Source: a virus (taxonomy: Duplodnaviria; Caudoviricetes). From it: a DNA stretch of 64,000 nucleotides. The DNA lies in IMG/VR virus record IMGVR_UViG_3300029305_004474, positions 1 to 64,000 of that record; one strand, written 5' to 3'. Under the pieces are notes generated by a model, which worked only from the letters and a program-made list of their open reading frames with translations, was not told the DNA's origin and did not search any database. The translations under genes and the position numbers were made by a program. This document shows, piece by piece, positions 1,043 to 60,663 of the stretch. Position 1 is the stretch's first letter. Each line of letters opens with the position of its first letter.

Positions 1043-1450
1043 AAAATGAAGAAAAAAAGAAGATTAGATAAACTGACCAGACTAACGGTCAATTTACCTG
1101 AACAATCTCCTTTCCACCATAGCAATTCCCTGCATATCCCCATTATCTCTAGATAATCTCACGACTATCTGTGCAAGATAATAAGAGATATTTGTTAGAT
1201 CGTCAATCTAACTGCGTTAATCCCTATGGTTGTTCGGAACCTTATAGCTCGCTTTCAGTATTCCCTTTTCGTATAAGAGAGCTTATAGAAGAAGGTCTCA
1301 TCACCTAGAATGTGCATAGGTAGAGTTTTACTTCCATAAGGTTATTATACTACTTCGGTACTAACTTAATCACGAGGTATAAGTTTAAGTTTTCAATCCT
1401 CCCAAAAGGGAACTTGCACCAAGGCTGAACTGAAAACTTTATTCCTTATT
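1043..1450 (-). ncRNA. Candidate ~400-nt structured non-coding RNA
   Basis: ORF-free; early promoter at 1460-1469; multiple nested stems whose G-U pairs form only on the minus strand; terminal hairpin and U-rich tract at ~1043-1099. Confidence 0.55.
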
Positions 1451-2034: not shown

Positions 2035-3231
2035 TTAAAAATATCTTCTATTTGGATATCCATGGTCTGTGAGAAATGTTATACTATCTCTGGCTCTAGT
2101 TACCGCAGTATATCTTAACCTGCGTGTAATATCAGAACTATGCATGAGTTCATCCATATATAACACATCATCTGCTTCAGAACCTTGAGCAAGGTGTGTG
2201 GTCAATACATACCCGTATTCAAATTTGTTGTATTGTGATAATCCATATTCTTTTTTCTCTTCGTATGGAGAGTAAAAATATCGTTTATCTAACTTAATAT
2301 CTTCAAAGCAAGAATCTAAGAAATCTGGTCTAAAATCAAATGATATAAACTTACTATTATTTCTAGATGAATGAATATCGTCAACAAATCCAACCATACC
2401 ATTAGTAAGATATATATCTCCAATGCATTCCTCCCAATTATTTTGTCTGCATACTAATTTCTCACCTAGATATAGTTTTTTATCATTAAGATGAAGAATT
2501 TCTTTTCTGATTCTATCATTTAATTCTTCCCTAGTCTTATTCTTTCCACAAAGAATCATATTAAAATCCTGAAGTAAATGTTTGTCAAATGGAATGGATT
2601 CAACTATTTTAGATTTACCATATATGCCATATTTTAAAGGAATATCATCCAATATCCAATTTGCTATCATTACAATAGGATCATCTTCTGCTTGACGCAT
2701 AATTTCATTGAGTATAAAATCTGGTTCAGATAATATTTTTGATGTACCCATTACAGGAGGTAATTGATTTTCATCACCCATGAATATAATCGGTATACCA
2801 AATGACAATAATTCCTTTATCATTTTATCAGGAACCATCTTACATTCATCTACTACAATACACTTTATCATATCAGGAAGTTTTTCTTTCAATTCAAACA
2901 TCATTATCGATTTCTTCTTTTGGTATTCTTCTCCAAATTCATCATATCCTTTTTCTATGAGATTCTTTATGATCACATCATATATCAAAGAATGAATAGT
3001 TGATGCATTATATCCTTTTCTAAGTAAAACCATAACTGCTTTGCCTACATAAGCACAGCATATATATTCTCCATTCTCATATCCCAAATCGTCTAAAAAT
3101 GCTCTAACTACTGTAGTTTTCCCAGTTCCTGCTCTACCTGAATAATAGAAATATGGTTTATCCATATTTTTTCTCCATTTGTGAAGCCTTTGCTTCAATT
3201 CGAGTTGTTCATTATTAAGAATGATACCCAT
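2035..3231 (-). CDS. SF1B RecD/Dda-like DNA helicase
   Basis: Walker A GRAGTGKT, VVDE, GDENQLPPV, MRQ, TTHLAQGSE, YTAVTRAR. Confidence 0.92.
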   Translation of the reverse strand: MGIILNNEQLELKQRLHKWRKNMDKPYFYYSGRAGTGKTTVVRAFLDDLGYENGEYICCAYVGKAVMVLLRKGYNASTIHSLIYDVIIKNLIEKGYDEFGEEYQKKKSIMMFELKEKLPDMIKCIVVDECKMVPDKMIKELLSFGIPIIFMGDENQLPPVMGTSKILSEPDFILNEIMRQAEDDPIVMIANWILDDIPLKYGIYGKSKIVESIPFDKHLLQDFNMILCGKNKTREELNDRIRKEILHLNDKKLYLGEKLVCRQNNWEECIGDIYLTNGMVGFVDDIHSSRNNSKFISFDFRPDFLDSCFEDIKLDKRYFYSPYEEKKEYGLSQYNKFEYGYVLTTHLAQGSEADDVLYMDELMHSSDITRRLRYTAVTRARDSITFLTDHGYPNRRYF

Positions 3232-11994: not shown

Positions 11995-12050
11995 ATAAAA
12001 TACCTCCTCTGGTTATTATCATAATTATTATATATAATTAGAAAATTTAT

Positions 12051-14155: not shown

Positions 14156-16795
14156 TTATCTTAAACTTACTAAATTACTTAAGGACTGTGATACGTCCAT
14201 AGATTTCTTTTGCTCACTTTGAATATATGTCATAGACATTTCGACAAAATCTGGATCACCATCATACATAATGGATAACTTTCTAGTACTAGAATTATAT
14301 ATACCAAAAGCAAGGAGATAATACTTATCCATAAAGGCTTTAGCATTTCTAGCATTAGATAAATCAACACCAGTTACTTGAGCAGCTTGGGCAATTTCAT
14401 AATCTGTTACAATCAAACTTGTATATGGAAGAAGTCTATTTGCTGCAAACTTAGTTACGTTATCAATAGCCTTTCTATCCTTACTCATATCAAGTAAGTT
14501 ATATTCATTTCTTCTCTTATCTCTAAATTTCTTCTTCACATCTCCAATATTAAAGATAAGATCTTTAACTACATTAACTTCTCCTCTAGTCCAAGAGATA
14601 AACTTGAAAATTGGATTAGAAGACTTACTTCCTTCGACTAAATCATTGATAACATATGTGCTATTATACATTCTAGCCATACATTTAACACCAAGAACCA
14701 CTTGCTGATCAAAAGATGCTTTTTGACCATGCATATAAAATCTAACATTAATCATTGTAGGATTAGAGTCGATTTTTCCAGTTTCGATCTTATTTTGATT
14801 GAGAGTTGGTTGATCAAACTTATGATTTGATCCTTGAAAAGTTCTATTTAATCGATTATCACTATTCCCAGCTACAGTAATAATATCTCGGTAAGCACCT
14901 TGAGTAATACCATTACTTTGATCACCATTTCTAAAATTATCATCAAGACGCTCATTGATATCTCTAAGTCTTTCTTCAATAGACTCAGTAGCCATAGCCA
15001 ATCTTTCTTCAAGTAACATTTGAGTTCTCTTATAAGGAAGAGAAATCTCATTTACATTACTTTCGTTAAGAGCTCCACCTTGTAACCCCCAACATTCACA
15101 ACCTAAGTCACTATTTTCAAGTTCAAAAGTCGTAGCATTGACACATAATCCAGATGGTTCATCGTTAACTAAACAAAATTCGTTATCTTCCATAAAACTT
15201 TCTACAGAAGGAACTGCTATCTGTTCAAGTGTCTCTTTAATTCCTTTAAGATTTCTTTCAATTAATTTTAAATAACTCTTATATCCGTCCGCATTAATAA
15301 CATAAGTTGCATTACTTGCCAAAGCAATATTCTCCAACGAACTTTTATCTCTTGGAGATATTTGATTCATTGATTTAAGACCAACTTCAAATTGAGATAT
15401 TAAGATATTGATATCATCAATATGAATTTCTAAAAATTGCATAGCTTTGCTACTATTCTTAGCTTTATCACTATTAGCGAGTTTCTCAATTTCTCTTTTT
15501 GCATCTTTTAACTTTTCTAAAGTATTCTTACTATATTTCTTTACATCTGCTAAAGTAGTTTTATAATCAACACCGTAACTACTAATCATAGCAAAACTAA
15601 ACTTTCTAGCAGCCATATTATCTAGTACGGTATTTGCAGTTTTCTTAACAGCATTTGCTGCACTAGCTGCTAAATCAGCAAAACCTTCAGTACCAGTAGT
15701 ACCTGGAGTAGGCTTTGTATTATAAGGAGTAGGTAATTGACCTGGTTTTAATACAGTAGGATCTTTAGATTCTCTACCTGCAAGAACTGCACGATATGCT
15801 TCTGTCTTATATGATTCAATACATCTTTCAACGGAATTCTTATAAGCTTTAAGTTGCATTTCATCATAAATAATTCTTAAACTACCAGTAGCATACTCAA
15901 GGTCTCTAAGATTATCTCTCTTACCTTTGATATCTTTAATCGTCTTTAAAGCTTTACATCCTTCAGATAATTCAGAGATATCTTTACTTAATACACTCAA
16001 GGCTTGTTCGAGAATAACATGAGCATTAACATAACGCTTATCTGTACTCTTCTTAGCCTTAACTAAATTGAAATAACCTTTCTTAGCTTTTTCAAGTGCA
16101 TCTGCCGTATACTTGGTTGCAGAAATAAGATCTGGTTTATAACCCTTTGGCTCAAATCCAACCGAACTCAATACGGATTTTACTCCAGAATCAATAATAT
16201 CTTTCATTGGACGCACTGCGGCAAGATTATATACAGTGGAAGGTCTAGGTAATTGCTTACCTTCATCTGAACGTACCAATGAACCAAATTTCACACTCAA
16301 TTCTGCTCTATCATTACCCTTAAATAAACCTTCTTCTGCAATATCAGATGTATCTTCTAAAGATTCTTTAGAAATAAAATGATCCATCTTCTTAAAGTTA
16401 CTAGGTATATTATTATTGCTATGAATAGACTTGATATACTCAGAAATGTTATTATATTCTTTCAATGCAACTGCAGGTCTCAAAGAAAAAATAGAAACCA
16501 TAAGTGAAGCATAATATCTTTCAAGCATCTTTGCGATTGCAATACCATCATCCAAATCAATACTAGAAGAAAAAATAGCAGGAAATTCCAAAATACTTTC
16601 TCTACCCATTCTTGTAATGGAAGATTTGCCAATCGTACCTTTTACGGATTTGACAGCATCGCCTGCAACACTAATTGCTTGAGCTACATGTCTAGCATTC
16701 TTAGCCAACTCATATGCAGCACCATAAGAAGATTCGGTGGCTTCTTGTTCTAAATCAATTTCTTCTTCATAAAAAGCCGATTTAGGTATAATCAT
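14156..16795 (-). CDS. Probable virion protein with internal duplicated domain and [AGS]-x-E processing motifs
   Basis: Late promoter 16856-16870; ATES, AEEG, GTEG, SVES and second ATES motifs; two ~130-aa internal repeats. Confidence 0.6.
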   Translation of the reverse strand: MIIPKSAFYEEEIDLEQEATESSYGAAYELAKNARHVAQAISVAGDAVKSVKGTIGKSSITRMGRESILEFPAIFSSSIDLDDGIAIAKMLERYYASLMVSIFSLRPAVALKEYNNISEYIKSIHSNNNIPSNFKKMDHFISKESLEDTSDIAEEGLFKGNDRAELSVKFGSLVRSDEGKQLPRPSTVYNLAAVRPMKDIIDSGVKSVLSSVGFEPKGYKPDLISATKYTADALEKAKKGYFNLVKAKKSTDKRYVNAHVILEQALSVLSKDISELSEGCKALKTIKDIKGKRDNLRDLEYATGSLRIIYDEMQLKAYKNSVERCIESYKTEAYRAVLAGRESKDPTVLKPGQLPTPYNTKPTPGTTGTEGFADLAASAANAVKKTANTVLDNMAARKFSFAMISSYGVDYKTTLADVKKYSKNTLEKLKDAKREIEKLANSDKAKNSSKAMQFLEIHIDDINILISQFEVGLKSMNQISPRDKSSLENIALASNATYVINADGYKSYLKLIERNLKGIKETLEQIAVPSVESFMEDNEFCLVNDEPSGLCVNATTFELENSDLGCECWGLQGGALNESNVNEISLPYKRTQMLLEERLAMATESIEERLRDINERLDDNFRNGDQSNGITQGAYRDIITVAGNSDNRLNRTFQGSNHKFDQPTLNQNKIETGKIDSNPTMINVRFYMHGQKASFDQQVVLGVKCMARMYNSTYVINDLVEGSKSSNPIFKFISWTRGEVNVVKDLIFNIGDVKKKFRDKRRNEYNLLDMSKDRKAIDNVTKFAANRLLPYTSLIVTDYEIAQAAQVTGVDLSNARNAKAFMDKYYLLAFGIYNSSTRKLSIMYDGDPDFVEMSMTYIQSEQKKSMDVSQSLSNLVSLR

Positions 16796-18290: not shown

Positions 18291-18386
18291 ATCAAAAATG
18301 AACTATAATTTACTTCTTCATACACTAAAATCATATATATTTCAATCGTTATTTGAAAATGGTAAATACCACATTCTATTGCTCAC

Positions 18387-25144: not shown

Positions 25145-25301
25145 AATATCCTCCTATCTGTCCCTATCTACTGAGGGACTTAACCAAAATTTTTATCGAA
25201 TGGATATTCATATTTATCCATTCTTATTATCAATTTATATAAAAGGGATTTTATTAAGAGCTCCCTGTCTACTCTTTATATCACATAAATAATATATATT
25301 C

Positions 25302-43617: not shown

Positions 43618-43654
43618 ATAAAAACCCCGTGGGACATTTCCCACAGGGTTTTAT
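43618..43654. terminator. Hairpin bounding non-coding block
   Basis: ataaaaaccccgtggga-catt-tcccacagggttttat (imperfect stem). Confidence 0.6.
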
Positions 43655-45120
43655 CCGATCTCTATATATTTTTCTTTATGTTTTCATAATGATTCCGTAT
43701 TCCAACTTCAAAATATCTTTAACGACTGCTAATCTATAAATAAACCTACCTCATCATCCTGTCCTCACAAACATATCATATACTAACAAACAACTGGATC
43801 TATATTTTTACTGCACCAAAAACTATTCAACTTTTTGAAACTCATTTAAGAGCTTCTTAGAATAATTTCATTTTCCTCTTAGCAGATATAATATTAGATG
43901 CTGGGAATGTCTAACATATAATACATCATCCATAATCTGATGACTTGCCAAGTTTGCCTATATAATACTGCCTTATTTTGATAGGGAATAAACCTTCCTC
44001 TTTGATCAAAATTACTTCCATTAAATACAAAATCTATATTTCGATCTTTTAATCATAAGTTATATTATAATTTTTAAATAATCATTTATAAAGATTAATA
44101 GTCATCTCTAATATCTCCATTGAAGTACCACTTCAATTATTCTATAGGAGATTATAAAAGATTATCAAGATTTCAGTATATCTATTAATTATACATATAA
44201 AGGATTGGATACAGTATATCTGCTATATCGTTCTACTTTACGACGAATAATACTTATGTCTATATTCTATCTATCTAATTAGATATGGCTATTTACATAT
44301 CCTATATTCGTATTGAATATATACCCTTTATATTCTATATTGATATAACTATATAGAATATACTAAGTTAATTAGCAAAAGTAATACACCCTTTATCGAA
44401 ATCTTTATATTGGAATAATCTATATACCATATAGATTCTAATTAATTCCAATCTTATTAAGATTTATGTTAATGCTACATATATAAAAATTTCTATATAG
44501 GGGTTAAAAAAATAGGATTTATTCTAAATCCTATCTAAATAATACTATCCCCCTTCAAAAAACGGAGTACTGTTCCGCTCGTCATCTTCCTCATTCTCTC
44601 GCTTGTCTTCACTCGATGATTAATCATCTTCGTGAATCCATAGAAGCTCCTTCTCTCAGTCGATTTCCTCTCGTGGGTATTTCGCTCAGGTTTCCTCCCC
44701 ACTCGGGTCCCCTCCTATCGCTCCATTTAACATTCTCTGAGTTTGTATCGATATATTTCATATAGCAAACCTCATAATCATTATGTCTTCGCTTTCTACT
44801 ATTTAATATTCTATTTAGTAGTTTTATACTAACTCTCTCTTCCCTATTTCCTCTTCCCCCCTTCGTCCCCCCTCCTCCTCTTCCCCCTCTCTCTCTTTAG
44901 TAAGAAGTTAGTATAGGAATTTTTTTATAACATAGATTTCTGAATAAAAAATAAAATTGTGTACTACACTTAGGTAACCTTGTAAAGATGATAAGGTGTA
45001 CCATTGGTATGACAACATGTTCTTTTTCTTCTACTACAACATCAAAAAAATAAAGAACTTGTAAACATTTTTCGCCCGTTCTCCCCATTAGGATTGAGAA
45101 CGGGCTCTCTCCCTTAAAAA
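43655..45120. other. Long non-coding hairpin/iteron-rich block, candidate replication origin or large ncRNA
   Basis: No credible ORF; 11 CTATAT copies; many hairpins; C/T-skewed TCG-rich tract; polypyrimidine loop. Confidence 0.45.
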
Positions 45121-47856: not shown

Positions 47857-47991
47857 AATGAAACGTATCAAATACGTCTCACCCTATACACATTCAAGTT
47901 TATAATATATACTTAAAACGCTATTCGAAAGTTAATAAATGTGTATTTATAGGTATTATATTTAATATAATAAGCATTTACTATCAGTAAA

Positions 47992-60557: not shown

Positions 60558-60663
60558 AATAGGCTCCTTTCTGCACTCTTTAGTGCTTTAAAGTAAAATT
60601 ATAGAAGAGTTAAAATCATCTTCATTGTATCTACCTAATGATATATATTCAAAAAACAAAAGA

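Follow-up and report, generated by a model that had tools for sequence, protein, structure and literature searches.

A gene-free interval in an uncultured bacteriophage probably carries a stand-alone gene for a two-domain noncoding RNA (ncRNA) of ~400 nt, which belongs to a clade of gut jumbo phages related to AR9 and PBS1 and would act in trans as a scaffold or decoy. The DNA analysed, hereafter the window, covers the initial 64 kb of an IMG/VR viral contig 100.7 kb long, whose estimated completeness of ~42% implies a phage of jumbo size. The interval comprises ~1050 bases between a Dda/RecD-like helicase gene, which terminates with its own stop codon and terminator, and a gene for a 327-aa fibre-like protein, which has its own ribosome-binding site (RBS). 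A sequence-only reading had proposed at 1043–1450 an undescribed stand-alone jumbo-phage ncRNA with an early promoter and a terminator. Our analysis supports this proposal as far as sequence can, and an RNA is indeed predicted there, with boundaries revised slightly to ~1453 and ~1052 (Table 1).

In agreement with the sequence-only reading, no open reading frame (ORF) of more than 45 codons overlaps 1043–1450 on either strand. When any single stop codon is recoded, as in an alternative genetic code, the longest minus-strand frame has 67 codons and none spans the region; the genes flanking the ncRNA use standard stops. The minus strand folds with −133.3 kcal/mol (z = −6.97 against 100 dinucleotide shuffles), compared with z = −2.57 for the plus strand, an asymmetry that minus-strand G-U pairs would produce. 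Specifically, conserved U-G pairs in helices P1 and P5 become A-C mismatches if read on the opposite strand, consistent with the earlier suggestion that G-U pairing reflects selection on a minus-strand RNA structure. The fold of one homolog, L005, has z = −9.2.

The early-promoter core previously seen to point into the RNA is present, with an AR9-like layout in every homolog. In particular, TATAYATNAT-N6-G precedes every copy at an equal distance from P1, and this layout predicts transcription start at G1453. Early promoters of AR9, which are used by its virion RNA polymerase and have been mapped experimentally, have the form AAATATATATTAT-N6-G(+1), and the layout in the window agrees with them (PMC5312081). 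The core sequence TATAYATNAT differs from that of AR9, and the RNA polymerases share only ~28–29% identity. Specifically, the 1441-aa RNA-polymerase beta-like ORF of the window has its nearest counterparts in Listeria phage LPJP1, PBS1/AR9-like Bacillus phages, Staphylococcus S6-like phages and Yersinia phage phiR1-37, with 27–29% identity, and this relationship to the PBS1/AR9 group makes it reasonable, if still inferential, to borrow the AR9 promoter rules. TATAYATNAT-N6-G is modestly enriched in the window: it occurs six times, always on the minus strand (2.4 occurrences expected), and 4 of 100 shuffles reach six. These exact matches, at 1453–1469, 12020–12036, 18323–18339, 25282–25298, 47895–47911 and 60631–60647, are candidate early promoters.

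At the other end of the RNA, the terminal hairpin and U tract described in the sequence-only reading belong to the MFE structure, and every homolog likewise ends in a long hairpin of differing sequence followed by a U tract. The outer stem of this terminator pairs a Shine–Dalgarno (SD)-like purine run with a pyrimidine run; a small ORF behind the SD-like run was considered and rejected, because it lacks a start codon in the window and its frame is closed after two codons in L004. All homologs preserve AACA, the N6 spacing and TA between the terminator and the fibre RBS (AACATCTCGATA in L004, L101, L102, L103 and L005, AACATCTCGTTA in L105 and AACACACTGATA in the window), as in the late consensus AACA-(6N)-TA/G of the AR9 non-virion polymerase (PMC5312081, PMC7598289). 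The motif suggests that the phage uses AR9-like non-virion polymerase promoters and possibly has dU-DNA. Late-type motifs also lie upstream of two large virion genes, which start at 16795 (minus strand) and 18413 (plus strand).

The RNA is thus preceded by the promoter layout of an AR9 early unit and the fibre gene by that of a late one. Together, the early-promoter motif, the terminator and the separate late promoter of the fibre gene indicate that the RNA is a separate transcription unit, predicted to extend from 1453 to ~1052. By motif, the window and every homolog combine the early element, N6 spacer, G+1 and downstream intrinsic terminator. The terms noncoding and non-coding are absent from the searched passages of the AR9 transcriptome paper.

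Table 1. Coordinates of the predicted RNA, its structural elements, neighbouring features and related loci (window positions unless a contig is named)
Feature	Position	Strand	Remark
Predicted ncRNA, ~400 nt, +1 G to terminator U tract	1052–1453	minus	no ORF, MFE z, nhmmer homologs
Early-promoter core TATACATGAT, then 6 nt, then G at 1453	1460–1469	minus	AR9 early layout
P1 5′ strand GGAAU	1441–1445	minus	closes ~210-nt 5′ domain with GUUCC 1240–1236
P1 3′ strand GUUCC	1236–1240	minus	
P2 subdomain	1387–1439	minus	encloses conserved loop and hairpin P2a
P2 13-bp stem AAGUUUUCAGUUC/GGAUUGAAAACUU	1439–1427/1399–1387	minus	in MFE
Conserved motif AGCCUUGGUGCAAG, consensus RGCCWURGNGCA	1413–1426	minus	best-conserved 5′ block, all members
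P2a hairpin	1411–1408/1403–1400	minus	
P4 core	1282–1340	minus	stem, internal loop, P4a, P4b
P4 stem	1340–1331/1291–1282	minus	
P4a CUC/GAG	1325–1323/1299–1297	minus	
P4b hairpin, conserved loop UGCACAUUC (AUGCRCAUUC)	1320–1317/1307–1304	minus	
3′ domain	1117–1229	minus	P5-closed multibranch
P5	1229–1219/1127–1117	minus	
Junction AACGC	1218–1214	minus	
P6 GCA/UGC	1215–1213/1134–1132	minus	
Intrinsic terminator	1052–1112	minus	in MFE; equivalents in homologs
Terminator outer stem AAGGAGAU/AUCUUCUU, 8 bp	1112–1105/1064–1057	minus	
Terminator inner stem AGGUAAAUUGACC/GGUCAGUUUAUCU, 13 bp	1099–1087/1078–1066	minus	
Terminator U tract	1056–1052	minus	
Late promoter, AR9-type, AACA-N6-TA, predicted +1 A at 1020	1020–1031	minus	for fibre-like gene; outside RNA
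Fibre-like gene, 327 aa	1–984, ATG at 984	minus	
Dda/RecD-like helicase gene	2035–3231	minus	
RNA homolog	L004:7149–7566		
RNA homolog	L101:1112–1524		
RNA homolog	L102:774–1191		
RNA homolog	L103:774–1191		L104 identical
RNA homolog	L105:2489–2969		
RNA homolog	L005:5726–6294		L006 identical
ORF-free block	L007:6025–6495		
ORF-free block	L007:6500–7215		
ORF-free block	L090:5175–5655		
ORF-free block	L090:5790–6290		

Homologs of the RNA were obtained from metagenome assemblies. Neither blastn of the RNA region against GenBank phages nor exact-pattern scans of IMG/VR gave a match, and no close relative was found in these two collections; a helicase-alignment scan of IMG/VR returned distant phages only (≤42% identity), five of which have no fibre gene. 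Nine matches of a JGI metagenome scan and eight of a GTDB genome scan were not homologous by nhmmer, and L112, read through, looks coding. Relatives of the helicase with 50–78% identity occur in Logan and ENA assemblies, and homologous contigs were retrieved via the helicase and via the downstream fibre-like protein. Six further distinct copies of the RNA were found, giving with the window seven sequences from ~5 lineages. The window sequence detects five of the six by nhmmer (E = 3e-9 to 1e-4), and L005 was recognised through common blocks and structure. The comparison of helicase/fibre loci that the sequence-only reading had named as a check has homologs to draw on, and their helices carry compensatory changes. 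So far the family is known from a few related phages of animal faecal and bovine-gut metagenomes; four faecal DNA runs yielded only low-depth, identical contig pieces and no variants, and the sequencing runs listed as containing the sequence include no RNA run.

In all seven loci, the RNA lies between the orthologous Dda-like helicase and fibre-like genes, directly upstream of the latter, whose N-terminal 320 aa are conserved. This constant linkage fits a cis role and favours the main rival explanation, which we nevertheless regard as unlikely, namely that the RNA is a leader of the fibre gene, i.e. an attenuator, an antiterminator or an mRNA-stability element that controls early read-through. 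The early and late promoters would then put the fibre gene in the ‘continuously expressed’ class of AR9, a phage that has genes with both promoter types upstream, and the SD-like run, being paired within the terminator's outer stem, also fits a leader. However, the terminator is strong, combining the 13-bp inner and 8-bp outer stems with a U tract, and is conserved in kind, and the intervening late-promoter motif is complete, so that the fibre gene needs no read-through. Furthermore, no alternative antiterminator pairing was seen to be conserved among the homologs, no riboswitch or leader family matches, and an elaborate two-domain fold with invariant loops exceeds the needs of known attenuators.

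In the window, the stop codon of the fibre-like gene is formed by the first bases of the contig; the orthologous proteins have 870–905 aa and share only the N-terminal ~320 residues; the receptor-binding part of the window protein either has been split off or lies past the contig end. In the L004 group, the RNA is immediately preceded by a gene for a protein of 217–236 aa that lacks a Pfam hit (L004:6436–7089, L101:395–1051, L102:2–712), and the window has no ORF at this place.

The structure model combines RNAalifold output for the four closest members, an alignment of the 5′ domain over six members, and inspection with the invariant blocks as anchors. Judged by this comparison, the RNA fold is composed of two domains. 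Enforcing the conserved helices on the window RNA gives −132.2 kcal/mol, compared with −133.3 kcal/mol for the MFE structure, i.e. at a cost of 1.1 kcal/mol.

In the 5′ domain, closing helix P1 shows both-side changes at three of five pairs, with 96.6% of cells paired in six sequences, and the equivalent of P1 in L005, AGAGUGAAG/CUUCAUUCU, is paired at 9/9 positions. The P2 stem, which the sequence-only reading had already assigned to the 5′ domain, has an outer part that reads directly as UAAUUUA/UAAAUUA in L004 and AGUAU/GUACU in L102. Hairpin P2a is UCCC/GGGA in the window, GUCGUGA/UCACGAU in L004 and L101, GAAAGG/CCUUUC in L102 and L103, and GGAA/UUCC in L105, fully paired in each case. 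The adjoining RGCCWURGNGCA motif is probably unpaired or engaged in a tertiary contact. The P3 region in the middle of the domain gives no consistent alignment and contains a conserved RAGUA motif. P4 holds an invariant core, in which AAACUCUAC is followed by P4b bearing the loop AUGCRCAUUC and then by GAKGAGUCC, and the first and last of these blocks are invariant or nearly so. P4 itself changes on both sides at four of five pairs (six sequences, 86.7% of cells paired), and from it an A-rich linker returns to P1.

The six-member alignment over P1, P4, P4a, P4b and a proposed kissing helix has 93.9% of cells paired, compared with 31–43% when the partner strands are slid, and none of 500 shuffles reaches its covariation score. 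MAFFT misaligned the variable hairpins, and P4 and P5 were for this reason counted over all seven members in a register anchored on the conserved blocks; with this register, 37 of 42 P4 cells pair, compared with 13–22 of 42 with a slid partner.

In the 3′ domain, the two P5 strands differ wholly in sequence among the seven members (CCAUAGGGAUU/AAUUGCUAUGG, GUAUCCUGAUU/AAUCAGGAUAU, GUAUUCUGACU/AGUCAGAAUAC, ACAUCUUGCUU/AAGUAAGAUGU, ACAUCUUGCUU/AAGUAAGGUGU, UUGGAUUUAUU/AAUGAAUUCAA and CAAAUCAAU/AUUGAUUUG) yet pair at 9–11 of 11 positions in one register beside UAAC...GGGA. After correction by hand, the counts are 10/11 for the window and 75/77 for all seven. Among the four close members, 100% of P5 cells pair, with both-side changes at 6 of 11 pairs, compared with 32–46% of cells in slid controls. 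P6 is GCU/AGC in the L004 group instead of GCA/UGC, and the domain is completed by two hairpins, which vary in length, together with GGGA on its return strand. A covariance model of the four close 3′ domains (R1) missed the copies of the window, L105 and L005, also when its filters were switched off, which we attribute to the narrowness of the model.

Compensatory substitution, as expected of a conserved structured ncRNA, is found in P1, P4 and P5 against the controls across ~5 lineages, and the comparison indicates that helices P1, P2a, P4 and P5 are kept by such substitutions. A formal covariation test would have little power with only ~5 independent lineages. The blocks AGCCWUGGNGCA, AAACUCUAC...GAKGAGUCC and UAACGC...GGGA stay fixed beside these varying helices.

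Other pairings proposed in the sequence-only reading fared unevenly. The CCAUAG/CUAUGG and UAUCUC/GGGAUA helices are present and part of the MFE structure. The GAACAA/UUGUUC helix occurs in the window copy only, and the central ACCUU/AAGGU helix is not conserved and competes with the covariation-supported P1 and P4. The 5′ hairpin CUUGGUGCAAG presenting GUGCA and two UGCAC loops, one at 1316–1312 and one within the long 3′ hairpin, do exist in the window; the second UGCAC loop is not conserved, nor is the CUUG/CAAG stem of the 5′ hairpin, which is broken in L102, L103, L105 and L005. The GUGCA/UGCAC kissing loop itself does not covary: four of its pairs are invariant, and the sole variable pair is U-A in 2/6, U-G in 2/6 and A-A, hence broken, in 2/6 members, so that the evidence for a loop–loop contact is neutral to mildly negative. 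Pairing may equally be intermolecular, given the palindromic nature of the conserved UGCA/GCGC cores (AUGCGCAU in L004 and L101, AGUGCACU in L105).

Rfam 15 assigns no family to the window copy or to any homolog. Specifically, nothing rises above noise in the RNA region at E up to 10, no family matches the whole window at gathering scores, and none matches the seven homologous loci at E up to 0.5; the best scores are 18–27 bits, compared with gathering scores of 55–100, and all fall on terminator-like hairpins. The unmatched models include those of RNase P RNA, SRP RNA, 6S RNA, group I and II introns, hammerhead and other ribozymes, riboswitches and leaders. ARAGORN found no tRNA and no tmRNA in the window, and the earlier failure to match the RNA to tmRNA, RNase P, SRP, a group I intron or a hammerhead is thereby upheld. 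RNase P RNA, tmRNA, 6S and SRP RNA resemble the RNA in size range, long-range closing helices and invariant junction nucleotides, but the lack of any Rfam match and of a tmRNA call separates it from them. No K-turn, C/D box, hammerhead, T-box or tetraloop-receptor motif was recognised on inspection.

To our knowledge, large structured RNAs without an assigned function are rare, and the study of such RNAs has repeatedly given new biology, as with ROOL, GOLLD, OLE and HEARO/omega RNA. ROOL and GOLLD (Rfam RF03087 and RF01998) are large ornate ncRNAs that are frequent in phages and prophages of Firmicutes. Both form homo-oligomeric cages, the structures of which have been solved (PMC12286853). 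The RNA described here is likewise stand-alone, several hundred nt long, multi-domain, phage-borne and of gut or rumen origin, and by analogy its loops with palindromic cores may mediate RNA–RNA contacts. In contrast to ROOL (~580 nt) and GOLLD (~800 nt), it has ~400 nt and a different architecture, and it is not beside tRNA genes, of which the window has none. The ROOL and GOLLD covariance models are unmatched in the region (E ≤ 10), in the window (gathering scores) and in the seven homologous loci (E ≤ 0.5). By these comparisons, the RNA is a new family of the same general kind as ROOL and GOLLD, unrelated to both in sequence and fold.

The phi29 pRNA is also a structured phage RNA with an early promoter, as predicted here. 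It acts in trans and uses loop–loop pairing, the counterpart of which here is the proposed pairing without covarying support; unlike the present RNA, it has ~120–174 nt and is confined to phi29-like podoviruses, and the Rfam searches gave no match to it.

The family described here has defined, if predicted, 5′ and 3′ ends and a two-domain fold supported by covariation, and its carriers are jumbo phages that bring their own RNA polymerases. In the mechanism that we propose, the injected virion RNA polymerase would start at G1453 early in infection and stop near 1052, so that the RNA would be one of the earliest molecules to appear once the DNA has been injected. A discrete ~400-nt RNA would be released and act in trans through its fold, offering as contact surfaces the single-stranded AGCCWUGGNGCA, AUGCRCAUUC with its palindromic UGCA/GCGC core, UAACGC/GGGA and the A-rich linkers. 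The partners of the invariant single-stranded blocks might be a phage or host protein, or the blocks might serve RNA–RNA association, and the RNA could thereby act as an RNP scaffold or decoy in host takeover. We infer such a trans-acting role, whether as a protein-binding scaffold or decoy or by self-association via the invariant unpaired blocks, with modest confidence. As a possible function, the sequence-only reading had named a decoy, a scaffold or an anti-defence RNA. A role as a CsrA sponge was considered and rejected, as GGA is only ~2-fold above expectation by hand count and lies mostly within stems. The family also offers a concrete case in which to test whether the promoter rules of the AR9 type hold for uncultured relatives from the gut.

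A bolder reading, to which we attach a low probability, is that the RNA belongs to a new functional class, being a multimer built through palindromic loops or a catalyst that serves host takeover early in infection, with the unrelated RNAs of sister phages marking the locus as an RNA hotspot. Jumbo phages of the dU-DNA type would then have their injected polymerase make the RNA in the first minutes, to take over or disarm the host.

The two remaining readings are less likely. The size, the multi-domain fold and the invariant junction nucleotides are ribozyme-like, the ACUC...GAGUCC pairing recalls a conserved core helix, and introns with HNH genes occur in the RNA-polymerase genes of PBS1/AR9-type phages, all of which would suit a catalytic or mobile-element RNA, intact or decayed, such as the remnant of a divergent self-splicing intron, a ribozyme of another type, or an RNA that serves as guide or template and has a distant partner gene. 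Intron, ribozyme and guide-RNA models, however, are unmatched at E up to 10 in the region and 0.5 in the homologs, flanking exons are absent, with the helicase stop and terminator and the fibre RBS in place, none of the loci has a neighbouring gene for a reverse transcriptase, nuclease or transposase, and the RNA is present as a single copy in the genome, which together make this origin very unlikely. Most unlikely of all is a DNA-level element (a replication origin, packaging site or recombination hotspot) whose inverted repeats would incidentally give the fold: the location in 1 kb of gene-free DNA next to the DnaB and Dda helicase genes, a flank of 21–25% GC at 1500–2000 and frequent breaks of relatives' assemblies there would fit it, but folding is strongly strand-asymmetric, the conserved U-G pairs and compensatory changes point to selection on RNA pairing, the promoter and terminator bracket the structured region exactly, and this region is the GC-richer segment (33–38% in the flagged RNA part), not the AT-rich, helicase-proximal flank.

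The AT-rich and gene-free stretch at 1500–2035 has features of its own. It contains more terminator-like hairpins at ~1500–1535, 1805–1835 and 1976–2027, several relatives' contigs break off in the equivalent stretch, and parts of it match many unrelated contigs of the faecal runs, as a repeat would.

In the wider clade, the helicase/fibre interval has other contents. Sister phages L007 and L090 each carry two other long ORF-free blocks there (Table 1), none with an Rfam match, and L091 has no structured block at this site, which suggests that the RNA is dispensable or replaceable. Three of the blocks were folded (z = −7.9 for L007A, −6.5 for L007B and −7.9 for L090B), and each fold ends with a hairpin and then a U run; the GC content of L007B and L090B is markedly above that of the phage. 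L007A and L090A have the same early-promoter layout and +1 G as the RNA family, and L007A also has the AGCCUUAGCGCAC motif; by nhmmer, both compare with the family at E = 0.08 or worse. Given the other large structured RNAs of sister phages, the helicase/fibre slot might serve phages as a reservoir for ncRNA genes. Elsewhere in the window, an ORF-free 900-bp block at 43654–44551 resembles neither the RNA family nor the L007 and L090 blocks. It folds only moderately better than shuffles, on either strand (z = −4.3 and −3.5), a pattern that suggests inverted repeats at the DNA level rather than a strand-specific RNA.
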